64,000 nucleotides of DNA from a virus (IMGVR_UViG_3300005736_000002:7678-71677), one strand, 5' to 3'. Positions 2,108-13,114 are shown, counted from the first letter of the stretch. Notes: generated by a model not told the origin, from the letters alone. A program made the numbers and translations.

Positions 2108-3253
2108 TCAGTCAGGGTATTCGATTATTTTTCCGAAGGGGTAGGTGAAAGTGTCATGCCCTCCGGAGTGGATGACCCAGATCACAGGAATGCCTGGATC
2201 TATGTCGTGCTTGTAAAAGTAGCCATCAGTGAAGATCACTAAGGCATTGGGTTTGTTTTCTTCTGCCCACTCCAGCACCTCTTTAACATCGGTGCCTCCG
2301 CGTCCTGTGAACTTAATACGACGGACATCTTCACCATCTTCAAGCTTATGGATCTCTTTGATGGAGGTGTCGAAGTCCAGTACCGTGGTTGTTTCCGGTT
2401 TTAAGTGATTTTGAATAGCATCAATCTCTGAGATAAACGTCATGAACTGCTGGTCTGTCACAGAGCCTGAAGTATCTACTGCTACTGAGATTTCGCCCAA
2501 GGATTCGCTGTAGAGGGTGGGTAGGTAGAAATCCGGTAGGAACCGGCGATTGAATTTTTTGAAGGAGTAATCCTCCGGGCCGAGCCCTCGCATGTAGCGG
2601 TAGAGGATTTCATACCAAGGTAACTTTGGGTTCAGCAGCTTGTCGATCGCTACCTGAATTTCACCTGGAATGGAGCCAGGGTCATCCTGAGCCATCCGCG
2701 CCTGGGTATTGGCCTTAATTACGATGTCTTCAATTTGAGACTGGATCTGCTGTGCCTGGTCTTTTGATACCGAGCTTTGGGAAGATCCCGACATATTCTT
2801 CATGTCTTGATTAAAGCCATTACGCCCCGGGTGATTCTGATCATTATGGATCTTGTTATAGACCTGATCAGAAGTCATATCATCGTACTGGTGATCCATC
2901 AGACCACCTTCCGGTAGCTTGTACCCGTGATCATCTAGCATGTTGTTAATCACGTAGTCGGTTGCGATGTTCCAGTCATTGAAGTCTTTATCATCGACTC
3001 GAGTCATGTGCTGGAACGCAACGTGCCATGCTTCGTGGACTAACACACCTACACGTTCATCTTCAGTCATTGACTCAAAGAAGTCCGGGTTAAACTGGAG
3101 TGTCAGCCCATTGGTGCAGGCCGTTGGAATAGACGAATCCCATGAGAACTTCAGAGAGAACAGTACCGTTGTGATGAACGTGCTGTTAGGGTTCTGCATG
3201 AGCTTGATCTTGGCACGATCGAGTAGACGGGTAATATCCTTAGTGGGTTTCAT
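2108..3253 (-). CDS. metallopeptidase plus vWA domain protein (N4 gp25-like)
   Basis: HEAWH zincin motif; vWA MIDAS DTSGS, GGTD, FTDGY. Confidence 0.9.
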   Translation of the reverse strand: MKPTKDITRLLDRAKIKLMQNPNSTFITTVLFSLKFSWDSSIPTACTNGLTLQFNPDFFESMTEDERVGVLVHEAWHVAFQHMTRVDDKDFNDWNIATDYVINNMLDDHGYKLPEGGLMDHQYDDMTSDQVYNKIHNDQNHPGRNGFNQDMKNMSGSSQSSVSKDQAQQIQSQIEDIVIKANTQARMAQDDPGSIPGEIQVAIDKLLNPKLPWYEILYRYMRGLGPEDYSFKKFNRRFLPDFYLPTLYSESLGEISVAVDTSGSVTDQQFMTFISEIDAIQNHLKPETTTVLDFDTSIKEIHKLEDGEDVRRIKFTGRGGTDVKEVLEWAEENKPNALVIFTDGYFYKHDIDPGIPVIWVIHSGGHDTFTYPFGKIIEYPD

Positions 3254-3264
3254 GGGAGTGTCCT

Positions 3265-3720
3265 TTAGGTAATGAGCCTTTTGGCCCGATAAAGTTTTTT
3301 ATACTCAGCCTGGTTATCCCAGGGCATGTGAGTAACTTCTTCTTTATGGTTCAGGATGAATGTTCGGAGTTCGTCCGGGGAATCGATCAACGCTATCAGT
3401 CGATCTAAATCAGGGTTTTGTTTGGAGTCATCCACTTCAGTGGTGTGCTTCTCTCCGGTTGCATCGAACCGTATGGTGGTTGTGCCTGGTCCGTACTCTG
3501 AGCCTTGCTGCCATTCCCAATCGCAGGGAATACCAGCATTAAGTAATTCTTCCTCACAGAAGAAGCTCCCATAGTTAACTTCATGAAAATCGAAGTAAGC
3601 TATGTCATGGTTTGAGACATCTAATTCATTAAACACCTCACCCATCCGGTTGAGGGTCTGTTTGACCAATTCGACATCATCTTTTTGTACGGACAGGCGA
3701 CAGAAGGTTCTATCGCCCAT
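3265..3720 (-). CDS. hypothetical protein ending in the shared motif (KKLYRAKRLIT)
   Basis: Lies between AAA and vWA genes; AGGAG RBS. Confidence 0.78.
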   Translation of the reverse strand: MGDRTFCRLSVQKDDVELVKQTLNRMGEVFNELDVSNHDIAYFDFHEVNYGSFFCEEELLNAGIPCDWEWQQGSEYGPGTTTIRFDATGEKHTTEVDDSKQNPDLDRLIALIDSPDELRTFILNHKEEVTHMPWDNQAEYKKLYRAKRLIT

Positions 3721-3729
3721 AGTAGACTC

Positions 3730-4752
3730 CTACAGTAGTTCCGCTGCGGACTCCGCAACCCAGTCCATTACCGCCTGGTTCTGTACCAGTGCTGGGTTTC
3801 GCTTCATGACATCACGTAGGGTGATGACCTGGAACTCAACCGGCATACGGTTAACGAACTTCATAAGCGGGGCAATGTTTGTGTCTTTGGCGTGATTACC
3901 GATGGAACCGCAGATCGCATACAACGTACCCGGTTCTTCTGGTACTGGGATCTTCTCTGCGTTGTTAATGAGCTTATCTATGGTAGGAAGGCTCTGGAAG
4001 ATCTTCACGTAGCTGATGAACTCACGCGCTACACCTTCAGACACGGTACCTGCCAATAAAGCCAGCTTACCTTTGATGTCTGCCTCACCTTTGATCAGTT
4101 TGGAAGCAAACTCCCAAGTACGTGGACACGCAAAAGTGCGGTCACTGTGATCCGGTTGAAAGGTGTACAGGCATTCTGGCTTAAAGCCGATGTACGACGT
4201 GATGCGGTAATCGATGTCGTTGGCTGAGGCCCAGTCCAACCAGGCTTCATGGTCGATGTCGAGTTCAAAGTGAACCAGACGTGACTGCAGGGCCGTACTC
4301 ATTTCATGCACGATGGCATTGTCTGAGTCTTTGTTACCGGCACAGGCCACCATGACATTCGTGTGAAGGTTATGTTCACCTACCTGTCTATCCAGGGTCA
4401 GTTTGTAAGCTGCTGCCTGAACTGCTTTAGGCGCAGAGTTAATTTCATCCAGGAACAACAACCATCCGTCTTTTCCGGCAGGTATATCATCCGATTCCAG
4501 AGGGAAGGTGTTCATAGGTGCGTAGTACGCTTTACCGGTTTCTTTATCAACGGTAGGAAAACCCATGAGATCTGTTGGATCACACTGACTCAGACGCTTA
4601 TCAATGATCTGAAGGTTATATTCTTCAGCAATCTGTTTGATGATGTCTGACTTACCGATCCCTGGTGAACCATGGATCATAGGTACCAGTTGTGCTTTCA
4701 GAGCTACTGGGATTTCTTCGATTGCAGTGGTGGTATTGACTGTAATTGCCAT
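3730..4752 (-). CDS. AAA+ ATPase (MoxR-like, N4 gp24-like)
   Basis: GSPGIGKS, LFLDE, AGN, STALQSR, CPRTWE; adjacent to vWA partner. Confidence 0.9.
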   Translation of the reverse strand: MAITVNTTTAIEEIPVALKAQLVPMIHGSPGIGKSDIIKQIAEEYNLQIIDKRLSQCDPTDLMGFPTVDKETGKAYYAPMNTFPLESDDIPAGKDGWLLFLDEINSAPKAVQAAAYKLTLDRQVGEHNLHTNVMVACAGNKDSDNAIVHEMSTALQSRLVHFELDIDHEAWLDWASANDIDYRITSYIGFKPECLYTFQPDHSDRTFACPRTWEFASKLIKGEADIKGKLALLAGTVSEGVAREFISYVKIFQSLPTIDKLINNAEKIPVPEEPGTLYAICGSIGNHAKDTNIAPLMKFVNRMPVEFQVITLRDVMKRNPALVQNQAVMDWVAESAAELL

Positions 4753-5568: not shown

Positions 5569-6762
5569 TTAGGAGAGTGCGTAGTTAGAGTTGCGTACTT
5601 TGTCTGCGATGTTGTCCCACTTAACGTAGGTCACAGGAGTCCCGTGCACATCCGACAGGATCTGCTCCAGGATCTTAGACTCAGCGATTTCTGCCAGGAT
5701 CTCCTTATACCAGTAACGTAAACGGTTAACGTGGTTAGGGTGGCACTTGAACTCGTCATGTACACAGACGATTGGGAACTCTCTGTAGCTCAGAGTTTCA
5801 ATGATCAGGTTACGCAGACGTACCAGGTCATTGTGGCTCAGTTTATCAATAGCTGTCTTGATGTTCTCTATATGAACCAGGGAGATGAAGTTATCTGTAT
5901 TGAGATCCACTGGATCACGGACACCTTCTAGCTCTACGTTGATGAAGCGTAGTGCTCTGCGGAGTTGAGTTTCATCGTGGTTACAACGACGGCTCATCTC
6001 ACGTACCACCATACCATCAACAGAGTGAGTGATATTGGCAGCAATGGATAGGCCTGTTTCTGAGCCCCGGTTCTCCATGAAGCGGTGAGTGAAGGTAGCG
6101 TGATCCAGCTCATCTACTTCTACTTTGATGTCCACTTCCTGCATGACCTTAACGTTCACGCAGAAGCCATCTGGGAGCGTCCAGGAGTGCGCTGGAGCCC
6201 ATGACTGCCAAGAAGCCATCATGTCATCCATTACTTCACAAGCACCTGGCGCAACGATCTTCTGAGCCTCGTAGAACTTTTCCAATTCCACAGTCTCTTC
6301 ACCGAAGATCTCTTTAGGCTTTGCCTTAGATCCGTAGAAGTGCGTCATCTGAGCCTGCTTCACTTCTTTACGCAGGGGAGCAACCTGCACACCTTCATGC
6401 TTCAGGAGCTGGTTCATCTCTTCAGTGGTGGTTGAGTAGATGTCAGCGCGTACATTTGGGTCAATCAGACCTGTATTGTTCGCTGTGACTTCACAACCGA
6501 TCAGGCAGCTCATGATCTGCAGACCAGAGGAACACGCATCAAAGCCAACCAGGTGGCCTGAAGCGATGCCTGCTTGCGCTTCACGCAGAGCCATGACTGC
6601 TTTCAGGTACAGGACGGGTTCATCAGCGTCGTCCAGCAGTTCTTCGAGTTTATTTAGGTTGGAATCCACCCAGGCAAGGCGATCTTCAAACAGGGCTTTG
6701 TCTAGGCCAAACTGGTTAGCGATGTCGAGTTTAATGTATTCAAATCCTGTGAAGTGGTCCAT
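5569..6762 (-). CDS. N4-like RNA polymerase II subunit 2 (gp16-like)
   Basis: True start MDHFTGFEYIKLDIANQFGLDK (track start is over-extended); motif A FDACSSGLQ, motif B RKEVKQAQMTHFYGS, motif C VHDEF. Confidence 0.93.
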   Translation of the reverse strand: MDHFTGFEYIKLDIANQFGLDKALFEDRLAWVDSNLNKLEELLDDADEPVLYLKAVMALREAQAGIASGHLVGFDACSSGLQIMSCLIGCEVTANNTGLIDPNVRADIYSTTTEEMNQLLKHEGVQVAPLRKEVKQAQMTHFYGSKAKPKEIFGEETVELEKFYEAQKIVAPGACEVMDDMMASWQSWAPAHSWTLPDGFCVNVKVMQEVDIKVEVDELDHATFTHRFMENRGSETGLSIAANITHSVDGMVVREMSRRCNHDETQLRRALRFINVELEGVRDPVDLNTDNFISLVHIENIKTAIDKLSHNDLVRLRNLIIETLSYREFPIVCVHDEFKCHPNHVNRLRYWYKEILAEIAESKILEQILSDVHGTPVTYVKWDNIADKVRNSNYALS

Positions 6763-6763
6763 T

Positions 6764-7249
6764 TTATTCTCTCCGAGGTCTGCGGTTGTTAGCCTGTTCT
6801 TTTCTGGATGCCCAACGGCAGTTACTAGGCTCGTAATTTCCGCTGTTATTAGTGCGTTCGATAGTGAGGTCTTCGGTATAGCCGGCGTTGTATGCCCACT
6901 CAGCAAAGACACTGAAATCATCCCAATCAGGGGTAATGTTGATGCCTCTACCCCCATAGTACTGATAACTAGGGGTATTGGTGTTGTTACAACGGGATCT
7001 CATATTCTTCCAAATACGATGAAGTCTGGAGCCTGAAGCTCCATGCTGCCGGGACATATTTCCGGTAACTTCTTTTCGGATACATCCGCAAGATTGTGTT
7101 TTTCCTGATCTCAAAGAGTTTTGGTCAATGACCTTTGTGTTACCACACGAACACTTACACATCCATTTTCTAGGGCGAGTTCTAGGCAGCACCTCTTCAA
7201 TCGCAGTAAGTTGTCCGAAGGTTTGTTTGGTAATGTCTATAGCCTGCAT
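6764..7249 (-). CDS. free-standing HNH-type homing endonuclease
   Basis: [45 protein letters not shown]. Confidence 0.85.
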
Positions 7250-7260
7250 GTTTAGTACCT

Positions 7261-7326
7261 TTATGGAGTGAATCCATTAAATTCTAACATACGGAGGACT
7301 TTACTAGTACCAGTAAATTCTTGCAT
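7261..7326 (-). pseudogene. orphaned original 5' end of RNAP2 (MQEFTG...)
   Basis: TAAGGA RBS plus ATG CAA GAA TTT ACT GGT, paralleling RNAP2 start MDHFTG; stops after 21 codons. Confidence 0.6.
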
Positions 7327-7337
7327 GAGTAGATTCC

Positions 7338-7574
7338 TTAATCGGTAATGAGTTTCAGGACTTCGTATTGTTTCTGTGCTTCTGAGATTCTGGCGCGAAG
7401 GGTTATGAGATCTTGTCTCTCTTCTTTATCCATCTCATAATGAGCGAGTCTTTGATTTATTCTTATTATTTGACGAGTACACTCGTAGTAACACTGCGTT
7501 GCTGTTTTAGTGGTTGAGCTTCCGAGTATCGGGATACTTTCGTCCACCTTTTTTGAGGCTACCTTCTCGTTCAT
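7338..7574 (-). CDS. small early protein, LxLI-motif family
   Basis: AAGGA RBS before ATG at 7574; ends KQYEVLKLITD. Confidence 0.72.
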   Translation of the reverse strand: MNEKVASKKVDESIPILGSSTTKTATQCYYECTRQIIRINQRLAHYEMDKEERQDLITLRARISEAQKQYEVLKLITD

Positions 7575-7758
7575 GACGTAAGTCCTTATTAGGTTTCGCT
7601 TCCCAGGTTTCATCCGCTAACCACACTGACGGCGGCATGGATGCGTTTAATTTATCCAGGTTGGACTGTTGTTCGTGTTGCGGAGGGAGTCCCAGGATGA
7701 TACGACGTAACTCTTCTTCTTTCTTTTGTTGACGCTTATTCACTTTCTTTTTCTTCAT
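7507..7758 (-). CDS. small basic early protein (ELRRIILGLPP)
   Basis: GGAG RBS; motif shared with 9010..9402. Confidence 0.65.
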   Translation of the reverse strand: MKKKKVNKRQQKKEEELRRIILGLPPQHEQQSNLDKLNASMPPSVWLADETWEAKPNKDLRHEREGSLKKGGRKYPDTRKLNH

Positions 7759-7761
7759 GGT

Positions 7762-7965
7762 TCACTCCAGAATCAAAAGCTCTAAATCAATAGATTTAAT
7801 ACGGTGCTTAATACGTTGTATTTTGTCTTCGATCTTTTCGTAGATTTCACGAGAAGTGGGACAGTTACGCTTGCGTCCTATAAGTTGTTGTTGAGCCCAC
7901 TTGAGATCCCACTCTAATGATTTTTTCTGGCGTTTCAGATAGTAAATTCTTTTATGAACTAGCAT
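7762..7965 (-). CDS. small early helical protein, LxLI-motif family
   Basis: GGAG RBS; ends KSIDLELLILE. Confidence 0.75.
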   Translation of the reverse strand: MLVHKRIYYLKRQKKSLEWDLKWAQQQLIGRKRNCPTSREIYEKIEDKIQRIKHRIKSIDLELLILE

Positions 7966-7968
7966 GGT

Positions 7969-8241
7969 TCACTCCGTTATGAGTTCCCACATCTCGTGTT
8001 CTTTAAGGGCTCTGTTCAACCTTTCTAACTTACGCAGTAGGTGTTCTTTTTCTTTTTCATCGTGGATGGGGAAATTTAGGCGTTCTTTGATTCTCATTAC
8101 TTCGAGTTTGGTGGATAGCACCTCAGCCTTTAGGGAGGTCTTGTCCGGTGAATGTTTCAAGGTCTTTGAGTAGCTCACGTTTCTCTGCCTCCATACGGGT
8201 GCTTTCACGTACATCGTTGTAGTAAGCCTGACCGTCGGCAT
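7969..8241 (-). CDS. small early helical protein, LxLI-motif family (start uncertain)
   Basis: Ends KEHEMWELITE; track start overlaps the neighbour, so the true start is probably further downstream. Confidence 0.65.
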   Translation of the reverse strand: MPTVRLTTTMYVKAPVWRQRNVSYSKTLKHSPDKTSLKAEVLSTKLEVMRIKERLNFPIHDEKEKEHLLRKLERLNRALKEHEMWELITE

Positions 8242-8326
8242 AGGGTAGGTGCTTTCTGAGGTCTGCTATACGTTGATCCAAGGCATCCAGTTTCAGCAGG
8301 ACATCAGCTTTTAGCGAATGGGTCAT
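8123..8326 (-). CDS. small early protein
   Basis: Coupled ORF, helical composition. Confidence 0.65.
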   Translation of the reverse strand: MTHSLKADVLLKLDALDQRIADLRKHLPYADGQAYYNDVRESTRMEAEKRELLKDLETFTGQDLPKG

Positions 8327-8615
8327 GATCGTGCCCTTTAGGTTGTATCAGCCCCATGAGTGCTGCTTTGTTTTGTTTGTACATTTCCCAGCGTTGGAGC
8401 AACTGGTAAGAGTCCAGAGCTTTTTCCCCGGTATGCTGAACCAGCATTCCTGTATCACCGTCAATCAATATTCGGGTGTTATAACAAGCTTGTTGTAGCG
8501 GGTGGGCAGGCTGGTAGGCACTTTCTATGTTTCTTAGTAACTCAGTTAAATGCGTTTCAAGGATGGCTACACGGGTTTCCAGATAGGTCACCCTATCCAT
8601 TTGTATCGGGTTCAT
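8304..8615 (-). CDS. small early protein, LxLI-motif family
   Basis: NKAALMGLIQ near C-terminus; AGGAG RBS. Confidence 0.75.
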   Translation of the reverse strand: MNPIQMDRVTYLETRVAILETHLTELLRNIESAYQPAHPLQQACYNTRILIDGDTGMLVQHTGEKALDSYQLLQRWEMYKQNKAALMGLIQPKGHDHDPFAKS

Positions 8616-8829
8616 GAGGATAGACTCCTATTAGGTCATGTATTTTTCGACGTTTAACGATTCTGTCGATCTGATCCAGTTTTTCCTGGTAGATTTTTAA
8701 GGCTTTAGGATGCGGGCAGTGGTTGGCTTTCAGTTCTTCGATCATGGACTTATGTTCTTCCAGTTGATCTACAGTCCATCGTTCATTCGGAGTCCCTATT
8801 TCTGTTGCTTTCATTCGGATCTCCTGCAC
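8593..8829 (-). CDS. small early helical protein, LxLI-motif family
   Basis: KRRKIHDLIG; probable start at second Met. Confidence 0.75.
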   Translation of the reverse strand: MQEIRMKATEIGTPNERWTVDQLEEHKSMIEELKANHCPHPKALKIYQEKLDQIDRIVKRRKIHDLIGVYPHEPDTNG

Positions 8830-9013
8830 CGATCAGATCCAGCATTTCATACTGTTTCATGTAGGCATTGATGTCGTTGATACGTTGTTCATAAGGTTCC
8901 CTGGCATCAGCGTAATGCTCAGGAGGAGAGAGGAGTGTGAGGACTTTATTGGCGTTCACTAGCTCCTCATTCAGTTCCTCTCGAGTGAGTGTATCGAGGG
9001 TTCTCATGGTCAT
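8783..9013 (-). CDS. small early helical protein, LxLI-motif family
   Basis: KQYEMLDLIG. Confidence 0.75.
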   Translation of the reverse strand: MTMRTLDTLTREELNEELVNANKVLTLLSPPEHYADAREPYEQRINDINAYMKQYEMLDLIGAGDPNESNRNRDSE

Positions 9014-9402
9014 TTATCCTGGTCAAAGAGTGAGACGAAATCCTCTCCTGGAGTGAGGTCTATTTGTACCTTAGCCATGTTAGGGCGGTCAGGTAGCATA
9101 GGACTCAGGCCCAGTATCAGGCGCTTCAGTTTACGTTGTTCACGTATATCCCACTGGGTCAGGAATTCATTGGTTTTAGGGTGACGGTAGCTTTCTCCCT
9201 CACGGGATTGAAGTTCCTCTTTCATGACTTTTATCCAGAAGACACGGTGATAGTACTGGGTAGTCATGTGACCGAACCGGTCATCGATGAACATCTGCAA
9301 GGCGTTCTCAATGTGTTTGGTATCCATGTCATAAAGAGAAGTTTCTTGGGTACCGTTTATCCAGACGGGTGCGTACCCGTCATCTGGGTTAGTTGGAATC
9401 AT
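9010..9402 (-). CDS. early hypothetical protein (KLKRLILGLSP)
   Basis: GGAGG RBS; ATGA overlap. Confidence 0.75.
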   Translation of the reverse strand: MIPTNPDDGYAPVWINGTQETSLYDMDTKHIENALQMFIDDRFGHMTTQYYHRVFWIKVMKEELQSREGESYRHPKTNEFLTQWDIREQRKLKRLILGLSPMLPDRPNMAKVQIDLTPGEDFVSLFDQDK

Positions 9403-9641
9403 GCGAGCCTCCCATCAGATTTGTAGTAGTCAACACCGATGAGTCCCAATGCTTCTCGTTTTTTATTAGAGAGTTTGAGTTGTTTCAGGTGTTTGCGTAT
9501 TTTTCTTCGTTTAGTACGAGAAGGTTCGTTTTCAAGAGCTGCTTCCAGACGATCTACATGTTGCAGGAAGCGGTACTCAGGGCAATCAGGAGGTAGATCT
9601 TTTCTCTTACTTACTATGGGTGGTGCTGCTTTGTGCATCAT
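9399..9641 (-). CDS. small basic early protein, LxLI-motif family
   Basis: KKREALGLIG. Confidence 0.72.
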   Translation of the reverse strand: MMHKAAPPIVSKRKDLPPDCPEYRFLQHVDRLEAALENEPSRTKRRKIRKHLKQLKLSNKKREALGLIGVDYYKSDGRLA

Positions 9642-9649
9642 AATAACCC

Positions 9650-10021
9650 CTACACTGTGGTTATGATCTGAGCCCCTAGAGCAGGGGACTTGATGACAGA
9701 ATGTCCATAGTTCATTGCGAAGTTAATGTCTTTCGCTTTACGTCGAGCTTCCGCCGGGTCTACTACAGGTTTGGGTGGATTGATCAGATCCAGGATCTTC
9801 TGCTCTTTCCTACGCTTCAGACACCTTTCCAGCTTTCGTATATGGTTCTGTATGGCTCTGCGTTTATGTTTACCTCGAGCTTTCTGAAGGGCTGTACGTT
9901 GGACTGCCAGAGCCTCCTCAACACGCTGTATAGGATCGAAGGGTGTTCTTTTAGAGCTTTTAGTAAAATCTGTGTCCATCTGCAGTGAATCAATTATGTG
10001 GTCGGTATTAGAGACGGCCAT
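9650..10021 (-). CDS. early helical protein, LxLI-motif family
   Basis: KEQKILDLIN. Confidence 0.75.
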   Translation of the reverse strand: MAVSNTDHIIDSLQMDTDFTKSSKRTPFDPIQRVEEALAVQRTALQKARGKHKRRAIQNHIRKLERCLKRRKEQKILDLINPPKPVVDPAEARRKAKDINFAMNYGHSVIKSPALGAQIITTV

Positions 10022-10181
10022 GTGTACCCCCTATCAGATCAAGCATCTGAGCTTTCTTTAACTTACCTTCGAAGTATCGAATACGTTTCTGGTGACGGTC
10101 TTTTATATGCCGTTTCTTGGCAGCTTTTTTACGTTGAGTATGGTATTCAATACGTCTTTCAAGAAATTCAAAGTGTGTCAT
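10008..10181 (-). CDS. 57-aa early helical protein, LxLI-motif family (not in ORF track)
   Basis: Hand translation MTHFEFLERRIEYHTQRKKAAKKRHIKDRHQKRIRYFEGKLKKAQMLDLIGGTHGRL; AGGAG RBS; resembles 10168..10368. Confidence 0.8.
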   Translation of the reverse strand: MTHFEFLERRIEYHTQRKKAAKKRHIKDRHQKRIRYFEGKLKKAQMLDLIGGTHGRL

Positions 10182-10368
10182 TAGGTGCTCCTATCATCTG
10201 AAGTAACTGAGCTTCTTTCAGCTTCTCAGTCCAATACTTAATCGAGTTCTCGTGGTGAGTCTTTGACCAGGGTCTAATGGCCCGTTTGAGGTGTTCTTGG
10301 TGGAACGTGATACGTTTCTTTAACCAAGTAATGCTCTGGTCGTTCTCTGGGTTTATTCTGGGTTTCAT
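10168..10368 (-). CDS. small early helical protein, LxLI-motif family
   Basis: KLKEAQLLQMIG; ATGA overlap with RNAP1. Confidence 0.8.
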   Translation of the reverse strand: MKPRINPENDQSITWLKKRITFHQEHLKRAIRPWSKTHHENSIKYWTEKLKEAQLLQMIGAPNDTL

Positions 10369-11264
10369 ACCCCCTCCACAATCTCTTTATCGTGTAGTTC
10401 AATGATGGCCTTTCTGAACGCATTACCCTGGGTAGATACGTGGTATCCCTGGGCGTATGTGCGGCCTCGTTTATCGACTTTGTGCGTGAGCCAGAACTCA
10501 TTACCTTGATGGATCAAGTCCCTGTAGATCAGGTAGGAGTCCTTCACGAACTTCTCCCATTGCTCTTTACGTTCTGGGTCTTCGATCAGTTTTTTAGGTA
10601 TCTCAGAGTATGTCTTTAGCAGCTCTACATTGAGGCTCAGAGGCACCTGATTGAACCGGTTAATACTGTCCAGACAGATATCATCTTCATGGAAATTAAC
10701 GTTACCGCCTAAGATAAGAGAGTCACGTTTAGTAAGGTAACCGCTGTCGTAGTTACTGCGGACTTTCTTCGGTGGAACAATCATGGGTGGTAAGTATTTG
10801 GTCTGAGCTATGAAGCGTTGTAATCCTTCGCTTGGCGTGATGCGTGGACGTACCATCAGAGAGGCTTGTTTGCTCTCTTTTATGATGTCATAGATGTCCA
10901 GATCACACAGGACTGCAAGGATCTCAGCGGAGGTCTTAACGCCGTCTCCTTTGTCTGAGAAACCCAGTTTTCCTGCGAGTTGACCGACAACCTGGGTGAA
11001 CAGAGTGGTCTTCTCGAGCACCAGGATTTCCATGATGACTTCCATCACAATCTCTTCCAGATCGAGGATGAGGAGCTGCTCTACACGGATACGTTTGGAG
11101 TCGTGATACTCCGGTGCTTTGTTGATGTAATCAATCAGCAATAGCTTACCTTCAGTAATGATCTGGGCTGCACCGTCTGTCTCTTCAATCTCCTTTTTGA
11201 TGGCTTTACGGATGTTGGATTTAGAGAACATTTTCTCAATGTCTTCTTGGAATTCAGGCAGCAT
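10365..11264 (-). CDS. N4-like RNA polymerase II subunit 1 (gp15-like)
   Basis: YLPPMIVPP, HKVDKRGRTYAQGYHVSTQG (T7-like DxRGR motif). Confidence 0.92.
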   Translation of the reverse strand: MLPEFQEDIEKMFSKSNIRKAIKKEIEETDGAAQIITEGKLLLIDYINKAPEYHDSKRIRVEQLLILDLEEIVMEVIMEILVLEKTTLFTQVVGQLAGKLGFSDKGDGVKTSAEILAVLCDLDIYDIIKESKQASLMVRPRITPSEGLQRFIAQTKYLPPMIVPPKKVRSNYDSGYLTKRDSLILGGNVNFHEDDICLDSINRFNQVPLSLNVELLKTYSEIPKKLIEDPERKEQWEKFVKDSYLIYRDLIHQGNEFWLTHKVDKRGRTYAQGYHVSTQGNAFRKAIIELHDKEIVEGV

Positions 11265-11268
11265 GGGC

Positions 11269-11484
11269 TTAGTCCTTATGAATTAACTTGAGGCTATCGT
11301 AGTAGGGTTTTAGGAGTTCAAGTTCTTTACGGGCTTTTCTCATAGAAGCTGCATTGTCGAAAGCGCAGCTAGGACAGAAAGTAGGGTGATGGTCACAACC
11401 AACACAGACTTCAGGTGTTTGTACTTTACTGTCCTGGTATTGCATTTGTTCCAGAGCTATGTCGAGTGATTTGATTAGGCTCAT
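11269..11484 (-). CDS. small Cys-rich early protein, LxLI-motif family
   Basis: CVGC...CPSC; ends YYDSLKLIHKD. Confidence 0.72.
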   Translation of the reverse strand: MSLIKSLDIALEQMQYQDSKVQTPEVCVGCDHHPTFCPSCAFDNAASMRKARKELELLKPYYDSLKLIHKD

Positions 11485-11578
11485 GGTTCATTTCCTCTTC
11501 AAACACCTGGTTCGAGATCCCAATAAAAAGGGCCAACAGTGTGGCCCCTATAAGTAACTTTCCGACGGTCAGTCCCAT
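11426..11578 (-). CDS. small membrane protein
   Basis: GGAGG RBS before MGLTVGKLLIGATLLALFIGIS (one TM helix). Confidence 0.6.
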   Translation of the reverse strand: MGLTVGKLLIGATLLALFIGISNQVFEEEMNHEPNQITRHSSGTNAIPGQ

Positions 11579-11979
11579 GGTGGTGAATCCTCCGGTACGT
11601 GCTGTTCTATCCTGGGTCGGTACTTCACAACCCAGTGCAGGATGTCTTTCTGACGACAAATGTCGATCATGTGCTTGGTGCCTTTACTCACCTCATCCCA
11701 GAAGATAATGGCAGCGTCACAGACTTCAGCCATCTCCTCATTTCTGAGATAACCTGCACGTTTCCCGTGCTTGTCCCAGTTGGCTGGATACTTCTCAAGT
11801 CCGAGGCTATATTCCTTCGCTATACGCTCTCCCAGTAGGTCTGCACCTCGAGCCCCACCACTGACAATACACACACCTTGGTTCTCCAGTTCTTTCTCTT
11901 TAGCGAACTGACAAACTATCTTTTCCATCAGTGGATAGTCATCAAACTCACGACTACCGGCAATACAAATACGAAACAT
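11569..11979 (-). CDS. SLOG/YspA-like (DUF2493) protein
   Basis: IAGSREF, VSGGARGAD, ANWDKHGKRAGYLRNEEM, FWDEVSKGTKHMI. Confidence 0.88.
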   Translation of the reverse strand: MFRICIAGSREFDDYPLMEKIVCQFAKEKELENQGVCIVSGGARGADLLGERIAKEYSLGLEKYPANWDKHGKRAGYLRNEEMAEVCDAAIIFWDEVSKGTKHMIDICRQKDILHWVVKYRPRIEQHVPEDSPPWD

Positions 11980-12001
11980 AGTCTTCTCCTTAACTTGATA
12001 C

Positions 12002-12022
12002 CCAACACCTGCGCGAATGCGC
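12002..12022 (-). promoter_or_regulatory. candidate vRNAP hairpin promoter
   Basis: Template (+) strand CC-N7-GCGC-GAAT-GCGC; one of three identical copies. Confidence 0.7.
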
Positions 12023-12058
12023 TCGTCTATATAAACCTCGCGGAGGCGAGGCTAGTGA

Positions 12059-12253
12059 TTATTCAGGTACGTCGATACCTATCAGGAAGGCTTCAAATTT
12101 GATTTGCTTGATGTTTTCTTCTAGTTCTTTGATTCTATCTAGGTGCTTGCGTCTACGTTTACCCATAGTTTCTTGGGCACGTTCCTGATTCCATTCCATC
12201 CAGTGCCTATTATGATTAACTATTTCCTGGGCTCTTTTTGCTGTTCTTATCAT
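12059..12253 (-). CDS. small early helical protein, LxLI-motif family
   Basis: KQIKFEAFLIG. Confidence 0.72.
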   Translation of the reverse strand: MIRTAKRAQEIVNHNRHWMEWNQERAQETMGKRRRKHLDRIKELEENIKQIKFEAFLIGIDVPE

Positions 12254-12266
12254 GAGTTATTCCTAC

Positions 12267-12458
12267 TTAACCGGTGATCAGTTGAAGGGTATCTATCTTT
12301 GTCTGCATCTCAGCGAGTTCTTCATCAGGTACCGTGAATAAACAGTTATCACAGTGCTCCTCAGTACAACCGGCTTTGCGCTTTATCTGACTGCAGATGG
12401 TTTCGTTCATGTCTGCTTCCAGGTAGGTAATACACATCAGATCTATCTTATGTTTCAT
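12267..12458 (-). CDS. small Cys-rich early protein (paralog 1), LxLI-motif family
   Basis: IC...C...CDNCLF; ends KIDTLQLITG. Confidence 0.75.
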   Translation of the reverse strand: MKHKIDLMCITYLEADMNETICSQIKRKAGCTEEHCDNCLFTVPDEELAEMQTKIDTLQLITG

Positions 12459-12684
12459 GACTGTCTCCTGAGTGGATCAAGTTAACGACATCCAGTTTCT
12501 TCTGGACTTCAGTTAGATCTATTCGGTTGTGATACAGAGGGCATTTAATACACATACCCCCATGACAAGCTTCCTGAGACAGATGACTGATCGCATCACA
12601 GATGTCTTCAAAATCATTCTCAGGGTTAGCCCCAATCACAGTATTAAGTTTCTCGATGATGGTGAGATCTACTTCATTACTCAT
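12448..12684 (-). CDS. small Cys-rich early protein (paralog 2), LxLI-motif family
   Basis: IC...C...CIKCPL; KKLDVVNLIH. Confidence 0.78.
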   Translation of the reverse strand: MSNEVDLTIIEKLNTVIGANPENDFEDICDAISHLSQEACHGGMCIKCPLYHNRIDLTEVQKKLDVVNLIHSGDSHET

Positions 12685-12913
12685 GACTACCCCCTGGATG
12701 TATTAAGTTCACTACATTCAACTGTTTTTGGATCTTTTTATAGTTGTGGGTTTTATGGGCAAGAGGACACTGATCACAAGGTACATCAGGAGGACAGCAA
12801 CCACGCTCGTTGACCAACTCACAGATGCTTTTTGAGTCTTCTCTGGTTAGTTCAGAGTCCTGTCTGAGTAGATTATTAATCTTAGTGATAACAGTTAAAT
12901 CTATCTGGCTCAT
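12677..12913 (-). CDS. small Cys-rich early protein (paralog 3), LxLI-motif family
   Basis: IC...CC...CDQCPL; KQLNVVNLIH. Confidence 0.78.
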   Translation of the reverse strand: MSQIDLTVITKINNLLRQDSELTREDSKSICELVNERGCCPPDVPCDQCPLAHKTHNYKKIQKQLNVVNLIHPGGSHE

Positions 12914-12922
12914 GATTTACTC

Positions 12923-13114
12923 CTACTTAATTTCGTTTATCAGATCGATTACTACCAGCTTTAGACTGAGCGTTGTTTCAGACATTTCAGCTCTTTTAAT
13001 AAGCTTATCCAGGCGCTTCTGTCTTTCTTCTTTGCGCATTTCAATTAACGCCTGGTGATTACTAATACCCTTAACTAAAGCTCGGGCTTTGACGCTCTCC
13101 ACAGTAATGTCCAC
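12923..13114 (-). CDS. small early protein, LxLI-motif family
   Basis: AAGGAG RBS plus GTG; LKLVVIDLIN. Confidence 0.72.
   Translation of the reverse strand: MDITVESVKARALVKGISNHQALIEMRKEERQKRLDKLIKRAEMSETTLSLKLVVIDLINEIK

Follow-up and report, generated by a model that had tools for sequence, protein, structure and literature searches.

A conserved Leu-Ile helix end recurs in two families of early-region microproteins of an N4-like phage

Two expanded families of microproteins, helical hairpins and Cys4 proteins, together with a few singletons, carry the same short string, Leu-Ile followed by a capping residue, and in nearly all carriers this string ends the last helix. They are encoded at positions 7338–13114 of a 64,000-nucleotide stretch of DNA (the window), which covers bases 7678–71677 of a 71,677-bp virus record (IMGVR_UViG_3300005736_000002). 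The record encodes a 3520-aa virion RNA polymerase and the split subunits of a T7-like RNA polymerase, RNAPII. The best GenBank phage matches of the RNAP1 subunit come from LUZ7-like and Klebsiella N4-like phages and reach no more than about 42% identity, which makes the source an uncultured member of the Schitoviridae, a marine N4-like phage. The interval is the early region of this phage; its genes are on the minus strand and lie on both sides of the RNAP1 gene. We favor, with about even confidence, the reading that the conserved helix end is an intermolecular contact patch.

The motif was originally described as a set of eighteen strings in small proteins, and all eighteen are present, each in the minus-strand open reading frame (ORF) named for it. 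ORFs are designated here by their lower coordinate (Table 1). With the Ile taken as position 0, the motif has the form K(−8)-x3-h(−4)-x2-L(−1)-I(0)-cap, where h is hydrophobic and the cap is G, T, H, N or Q. The proposed location at or near the C terminus holds for 15 of the 18 ORFs, in which just 0–14 residues follow the motif. It fails for ORFs 9650 and 9010, where 42 and 33 residues follow, and for ORF 7507, where the string lies near the N terminus, 61 residues from the protein end. The pI of the carriers ranges from 4.5 to 10.8. Two further carriers lie outside the interval: a 151-aa protein (...KRLIT) and the product of positions C1:2512–2838 of the genome (...YIKLIG).

The motif is commoner in the interval than in control sets. 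A Leu-Ile dipeptide is found within the last 17 residues of 14 of the 20 ORFs in the interval, compared with 5 of the 71 other ORFs in the genome; the pattern [LM]I[GTHNQL] gives 15 of 20 and 5 of 71, respectively. Residue shuffling of the cluster proteins (20,000 shuffles) gave 2.3 on average and 9 at most. Among 42 other N4-like loci, the dipeptide occupies this position in 54 of 518 small ORFs upstream of RNAP2, where the ORFs were mechanically called and the 54 is a sum over per-locus counts. LUZ7 has it there in 2 of 33 ORFs and a Klebsiella Efbeekayvirus in 5 of 43, and the stricter pattern h..LI[GTHNQ] has no match in these two ORF sets. A position-specific scoring matrix (PSSM) trained in leave-one-out fashion, with the paralog partner also dropped from training, scores 8 of the 16 carriers higher than the 99th percentile for 2230 small ORFs from other loci. 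A count of 18 carriers nevertheless overstates their independence: the set consists of two expanded paralog families, a few singletons and the two outside carriers. Collapsing the families leaves about four independent carriers within the interval, namely the hairpin family, the Cys4 family, ORF 8304 and the pair 9010/7507. After this collapse, an estimated 4 or so of about 10 interval families carry the motif, compared with 5 of 71 (7%) elsewhere.

The hairpin family comprises 12 ORFs (Table 1). In an alignment of 20 sequences (A3), a helix of about 20 residues is followed by a loop of 8–12 residues and by an ungapped second helix of about 22 residues that runs up to the L-I. A hidden Markov model (HMM) of the family retrieves all 12 window members with E values from 1e-17 to 2e-6. 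Among 5725 ORFs of 125 loci, it finds members only in this phage and in loci L126, L004, L046/47 and L049–52. A search of 1.84 billion representatives gave 18 matches; three of these are new (P0017–P0019), and all three contain L-I-cap. An HMM built from the pair 10008/10168 alone detected no other members above 3000 shuffled decoys, and for this reason the weak links seen in all-against-all BLAST were not used as evidence.

The Cys4 family has four members in the interval. Its alignment (A2, 6 sequences) contains six invariant residues, C29, C40, C45, C48, L69 and I70. An iterated Cys4 HMM finds more members in L004, L005, L006, L007 and L126. The family is expanded in L005–L007, which are N4-like loci from IMG/VR with six or more paralogs each, which makes tandem Cys4 microproteins a wider feature of marine N4-like phages.

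The two families cannot be related to each other. Comparison of A3 with A2 by hhalign aligned just the 14 motif columns, with a probability of 0.6% and an E value of 0.1, and thus detected no homology; a single family spanning both was rejected because there is no profile-profile similarity beyond the motif. The original prediction was therefore right that the motif is attached to at least two unrelated scaffolds. Its statement that eighteen proteins are involved, and not one duplicated gene, is borne out by the two unrelatable families and the singletons, but 12 hairpins and 4 Cys4 proteins are paralogs. A PSSM trained on hairpins places the four Cys4 motifs in the top 0.2–1.3% of 4174 background ORFs. 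The picture of a constant helix on variable N-terminal domains is correct as to a conserved end on fast-diverging bodies; across the families, the common part is only L-I plus the cap residue.

Sought in other Schitoviridae, as had been suggested, the motif recurs in 10 of 16 small ORFs of L126, in 6 of 8 of L004 (L-L variants included), and in 2–3 ORFs each of L047 and L052. Locus L126, whose RNAP1 is 93.6% identical to that of the present phage, comes from a Neptuniibacter metagenome-assembled genome (MAG), on a contig of 197,716 bp. At this level of polymerase identity, the orthologs of the carriers are 43–90% identical. Eight of the 18 carriers have no ortholog in L126, which possesses Cys4 genes of its own. 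The HMM searches confine the hairpin family to one uncultured clade, and gene turnover within it is fast. In five related phages, motif-bearing hairpins are located between the RNAP1 and RNAP2 genes.

Database searches returned little. The 18 motif ORFs gave nothing in PHROGs but one weak match, between 7762 and phrog_5328 (E 0.0055). Pfam searches at E ≤1 with 10 ORFs, among them 8 of the 16 strict carriers, gave sub-threshold matches only. No match to ORF 9010 or the 151-aa protein was found in GenBank phages by tblastn, and none to the interval 7338–13114 by megablast. The ESM Atlas contained just unnamed phage clusters and generic hairpins. RNAP1 alone retrieved no relatives from viral contigs or metagenome contigs, and P0019 retrieved none from viral contigs. 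Four seawater DNA runs held only identical low-depth fragments of the interval, and hence showed no population variation. A full-text literature search, with subscription journals and supplements outside its reach, found no description of such a motif.

The motif is clearly a protein-level feature under strong purifying selection, as strict as that on the phage polymerases. At 19 anchored sites, the first two positions of the L and I codons carry 1.0–1.9 bits of information, whereas the third positions are nearly uninformative (0.02–0.7 bits). The L is encoded by five different Leu codons and the I by all three Ile codons, and no nucleotide conservation is present downstream of the motif at these sites. 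Selection was measured on 8 ortholog pairs between the present phage and L126, with ten motif codons taken from each pair (80 in total). These codons have a nonsynonymous rate (dN) of 0.065, a synonymous rate (dS) of 0.78 and a ratio (omega) of 0.083. In the same proteins, omega is 0.232 upstream of the motif and 0.50 in the tails after it. The core genes compared with L126 give omega values of 0.067 for RNAP1, 0.10 for RNAP2 and 0.11 for the AAA+ ATPase. Changed codons are synonymous or nonsynonymous in 21 and 10 cases within the motif and in 125 and 220 cases elsewhere (Fisher p 9e-4). The tails evolve almost neutrally and are a by-product of the overlap with the ribosome-binding site and start of the next gene.

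The closeness of the motif to the next start codon raises the alternative that it is the in-frame shadow of an initiation element of the next gene, such as an enhancer, a processing site or a recombination linker, or a nascent-peptide pause that couples the translation of neighboring genes. The motif I codon does always lie 10–35 nt upstream of the next ATG, the cap Gly codon doubles as the GGAG/GGGGG Shine-Dalgarno sequence of the next gene in 8593, 10008 and 10168, and the junction GAGTGAACCATG is present twice. However, the spacing to the next ATG is variable and all three relative frames occur. The motif is also found 33–61 codons from the stop in 9010, 9650 and 7507, and in 12059 it precedes a terminator-like hairpin with no gene after it. 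An RNA or DNA element was rejected because the third codon positions are nearly free, the dS of the motif is similar to that elsewhere, and spacing and frame vary; the same facts identify the motif as a protein-level feature. We consider a nucleic-acid or translational signal very improbable.

The helix anatomy was examined in the AlphaFold2 (AF2) model of the 10168 hairpin (pLDDT 91.4). The model consists of two helices, spanning residues 2–22 (helix 1) and 26–52 (helix 2). Helix 2 stops at the motif Ile and has six residues more than helix 1. In the 20 aligned hairpins, the hydrophobic fraction along helix 2 is 0.70–0.75 at positions −20, −16, −13 and −9, 0.85 at −4, and 1.0 at −1 and 0, and the fraction of K/R at −8 is 0.75. 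On a helical wheel, the interhelix seam (−20/−16/−13/−9) and the motif positions (−8/−4/−1/0) differ in direction by 134–165 degrees. Along the final two and a half turns of helix 2, K(−8), h(−4), L(−1) and I(0) would line up as a single stripe. The face of this stripe would be rotated far from the seam and, since helix 2 exceeds helix 1 by six residues, would lie on the stretch that overhangs helix 1. The arrangement argues that the stripe is not simply part of the hairpin core, and that it may be an exposed patch needing a partner, be it another protein, a second copy or a paralog.

A contact patch is the most likely role of the stripe, because it is located off the seam and on the overhang; we hold this with a confidence that is evenly balanced. 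The early region encodes two lineage-specific microprotein families (hairpin, n = 12; Cys4, n = 4) plus a few singletons, and according to the proposed mechanism their helix end would make contact either with a shared partner or among family members. The loop or Zn-knuckle end and the charge would vary from paralog to paralog while the helix end stays constant; loops are highly basic in some carriers, and a Zn knuckle is found in others. The bodies of the proteins diverge fast, and close relatives differ in which of the genes they have. Prediction of a two-copy complex of the 10168 hairpin with alignment A3 scored 0.01 against a mark of 0.42, and weighs neither way.

Several points weigh against a contact patch. 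The argument from the helix faces is drawn from sequence periodicity and helix lengths, not from model coordinates. The AF2 model of a Cys4 protein is poor (pLDDT 56.5), and the place of L-I in the Cys4 fold cannot be read from it. The distant Cys4 relatives in L005–L007 vary in their endings, which include VIN, VMN, IIE and LIQ among others. Once the L and I columns are removed, the hairpin PSSM no longer separates Cys4 proteins from background. The two families, if each requires a pair of large hydrophobic residues at the end of a helix, could have arrived at L-I by chance or by ordinary helix-capping rules. One common partner for all carriers and the delivery of targets are candidate ideas only.

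Some of these points speak for a purely structural helix stop, made of L-I and a capping residue (G/N/H/T, often then Pro) and inherited within each family, with the likeness between families being a coincidence or a mark of very old ancestry. Most carriers are paralogs of two families, and their similarity across families disappears once L and I are left out. The I is the exact end of helix 2, and the residue after it is of the kind that ends helices. The extent of ortholog divergence makes a loss of detectable homology between the families plausible. A purely intramolecular role, however, does not predict a stripe that points away from the seam and lies on the overhang. An omega equal to that of the polymerases is also stronger than usual for a helix cap, and the estimated share of interval families with the motif is higher than elsewhere in the genome. 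We regard a structural stop as unlikely, though a serious contender to a contact patch.

The original prediction interpreted the carriers as modular adaptors, whose constant helix docks on one hub (the AAA+/vWA-peptidase, RNAPII, or a host protease or RNAP) and whose variable parts bring in host targets. Adaptors would account for a constant element on bodies of very different charge in at least two families, and for strong selection on that element alone. Two leads to a partner are circumstantial. One is the placement of motif hairpins between the RNAP1 and RNAP2 genes in the five related phages; the other is the 151-aa protein encoded between AAA+ and peptidase-vWA genes, which has the same type of ending, Y-x-K-h-h-x4-L-[IL]-[TKND], in 7 of 7 orthologs. 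Co-occurrence is not strict, however: L051 and L052 encode motif proteins and lack the 151-aa gene, the gap between their AAA and vWA genes being 9 nt. Moreover, each variable part amounts to no more than a loop or a Zn knuckle, too small to offer much space for a second specific binding site. An adaptor system is, in our judgment, quite improbable.

Among known kinds of system, lineage-specific multigene families of phage early microproteins come closest. The interval shares with early 'host-takeover' ORFan families the tandem arrangement of microproteins of <100 aa, their fast divergence, and their gain and loss between close relatives. It differs in what is unusual here, that one helix-end string is kept across two unrelatable families and singletons at the stringency of core enzymes. 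Adjacent early ORFs of the Klebsiella phage pKP-BM327-1.2 (Efbeekayvirus, L003; 2838–6402) end in a W-E-h-Y/F-like string (WEIYHE, WELFND, WRLYDN, WEVYCP, WEFYLE), and form a separate paralog family with its own C-terminal signature.

Two known systems resemble the phage motif in part. The ankyrin/PRANC F-box-like proteins of poxviruses comprise many paralogs within one genome, variable at the N terminus and conserved in a helical element at the C terminus. The PRANC domain has about 40–50 residues and its hub is Skp1/cullin, a ligase that bacteria do not have. The likeness is one of logic only, as the part shared by the phage proteins has 4–10 residues. The XB motif of SspB is a short peptide that tethers the body to ClpX and forms the very tip of a long disordered tail. 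It is likewise a short C-terminal element on a variable body, but the phage motif is the end of a helix with up to 42 residues after it.

A mimic of a known docking peptide, either the beta-clamp-binding motif or a cargo-loading peptide for an encapsulin-type HK97-fold shell, was also considered. The beta-clamp-binding consensus is QL[SD]LF. The phage motif shares with it an h-L-x-L-h pentapeptide near the C terminus of many unrelated proteins, and MLDLIG, ILDLIN and TLQLIT resemble x-L-[DS]-L-F. The beta-clamp motif was rejected on its first position, where the −4 residue is V, L, M, I, A, S, E or T and Gln occurs in 0 of 18, and on the helical context seen in the AF2 model of one protein. 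In encapsulated ferritins, a short conserved C-terminal peptide docks on the HK97-fold shell. Such ferritins (EncB, EncC, Rru_A0973) have two-helix hairpin bodies and are the top Foldseek matches of the 10168 hairpin model in the PDB, with TM scores of 0.77–0.84. The matches are non-significant and generic for hairpins, with a best E value of 0.55 and none at E ≤0.001. Encapsulin cargo was rejected on these E values (≥0.55) and on the position of the motif inside a helix, and no encapsulin gene came to light. The carriers are early-region genes, and their motif stays helical as far as the Ile instead of forming an extended peptide after a linker. Docking mimicry of either kind is thus hardly credible.

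Two DNA-binding or Zn-binding folds were rejected as well. A helix-turn-helix (h-A-x-x-h-G-h...) would require a third helix, which is absent, as only 0–14 residues follow the motif in most carriers and these evolve with an omega of 0.50. For a DksA/TraR C4 zinc finger, no Pfam match to zf-dskA_traR was obtained at E ≤1 with 11269, 12448 or 12677.

A few gene models in the interval need comment. ORFs 7969 and 7338 have N-terminal extensions of about 35–40 codons; these run into the 3′ end of the ORF upstream, with overlaps of 119 and 107 nt, respectively. The extension of 7969 is an alternative frame of the conserved gene 8123, and a GTG with AAGG upstream is present near 8121, at the stop of 8123. 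The first 40 or so codons of 7969 are probably untranslated, and the real protein would have about 50 aa. The true start of 7338 is likely the ATG at 7574, because a better Shine-Dalgarno sequence is present there. ORF 7507 is a questionable gene, because it overlaps 7338–7613 by 107 nt. Outside the interval, a 118-aa protein (1743–2099) encoded after the vWA-peptidase gene contains ...KMAKLLGVP..., and its relatives contain ...TAHLLGVP... or ...MINLLGMT... (L004, 15632–15943; L052, 7077–7421). This L-L-G variant resembles the string R-L-I-L-G-L-P-P of 9010/7507.

The surroundings of the interval vary among relatives. The interval sits downstream of three identical 12-mer sites, GCGCGAATGCGC, at 12011, 13999 and 14702 (3 exact copies, compared with 0.09 expected). 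At its other end, an HNH endonuclease gene (6764–7320) is inserted between a relic RNAP2 start (MQEFTG..., directly after the stop of 7338) and the working RNAP2 start. L126 and L004 lack the HNH gene, and RNAP2 there directly follows the last hairpin gene. A 136-aa protein (11569–11979) belongs to phrog_289 ('GTP-binding domain') and has DprA-like matches. It corresponds to the C-terminal domain of longer relatives of 242 aa in L126 (10297–11025) and 368 aa in L004 (6721–7827), the gene of the present phage being shorter at its N terminus.

To the left of the window, at C1:224–1670 of the genome, lies a gene for a P4-type tyrosine integrase (Arm-DNA-bind_3, Phage_int_M, Phage_integrase), and an AlpA-type regulator is also encoded. 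In the close relative, the integrase is 86% identical and adjoins tRNA-Cys and tRNA-Gly genes in the 197.7-kb Neptuniibacter MAG contig (loci L126 and L128). This looks like an integrated, temperate N4-like phage. Integrase-bearing N4-like uncultivated virus genomes (UViGs) are mentioned in an earlier report (PMC10654107).

Table 1. Motif carriers, family members and landmark genes, with positions in the window
Positions	Strand	Group	Description	Remark
3265..3720	-	Outside interval	151-aa protein ending ...YKKLYRAKRLIT	Between AAA+ (AAA_5/MoxR-like, 3730-4752) and DUF2201 peptidase-vWA (2108-3253) genes
5569-6957		Context	RNAP2	Follows interval, behind inserted HNH gene
7338..7613	-	Hairpin	Ends ...KQYEVLKLIT-D	Paralog of 7969; directly upstream of relic RNAP2 start
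7507..7758	-	9010-like	LRRIILGLPP near N terminus (loose variant)	Match to 9010, E 2e-4, small database
7762..7965	-	Hairpin	Ends ...KSIDLELLIL-E	Hairpin HMM
7969..8241	-	Hairpin	Ends ...KEHEMWELIT-E	Hairpin HMM
8123..8326	-	Hairpin	Member without L-I (...LLKDLETFTG...)	Kept in L126 (49%)
8304..8615	-	Singleton	Two-helix 103-aa protein with long insert; ...NKAALMGLIQ + 12-residue tail	Outside hairpin HMM retrieval
8593..8829	-	Hairpin	...KRRKIHDLIG + 10-residue tail	Gly codon within GGAG of next gene
8783..9013	-	Hairpin	Acidic; ...KQYEMLDLIG + 14-residue tail	Homolog P0017
9010..9402	-	9010-like	130-aa protein, internal ...LKRLILGLSPM	Sole carrier with BLAST ortholog in L004
9399..9641	-	Hairpin	Basic; ...KKREALGLIG + 11-residue tail	A3 alignment
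9650..10021	-	Hairpin	Basic hairpin domain ...KEQKILDLIN + 42-residue Pro-rich tail	Hairpin HMM
10008..10181	-	Hairpin	Basic; ...KKAQMLDLIG + 6-residue tail	Homolog P0019
10168..10368	-	Hairpin	Basic; ...KEAQLLQMIG + 6-residue tail	AF2 model
10365..11264	-	Context	RNAPII small subunit (N4 RNAP1-like)	Without motif; context only
11269..11484	-	Cys4	Ends ...PYYDSLKLIH-KD	Cys4 alignment
12059..12253	-	Hairpin	...QIKFEAFLIG + 5-residue tail	Last gene before terminator-like hairpin and 12-mer site
12267..12458	-	Cys4	Ends ...TKIDTLQLIT-G	Cys4 alignment
12448..12684	-	Cys4	...KKLDVVNLIH + 7-residue tail	Cys4 alignment
12677..12913	-	Cys4	...KQLNVVNLIH + 6-residue tail	Cys4 alignment
12923..13114	-	Hairpin	Helical, ends ...LKLVVIDLIN-EIK	Weakest in hairpin profile

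The early microproteins of phages are mostly ORFans that offer no handle on function, and the motif provides a precise, mutable handle across about 16 proteins. If the helix end is only a helix stop, the interval would hold an ordinary pair of expanded gene families. If the carriers have a common partner, they would be a rare phage example of different families using one docking module. A more speculative idea, to which we assign a low probability, is that hairpin and Cys4 proteins are interchangeable 'heads' on one machine, with the stripe plugging into a single site and the hypervariable tips and charges giving specificity. The machine may be the split RNAPII or the AAA+/vWA-peptidase pair. 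In that case, the microproteins would be phage-encoded, exchangeable specificity or targeting factors that turn over rapidly under host pressure.

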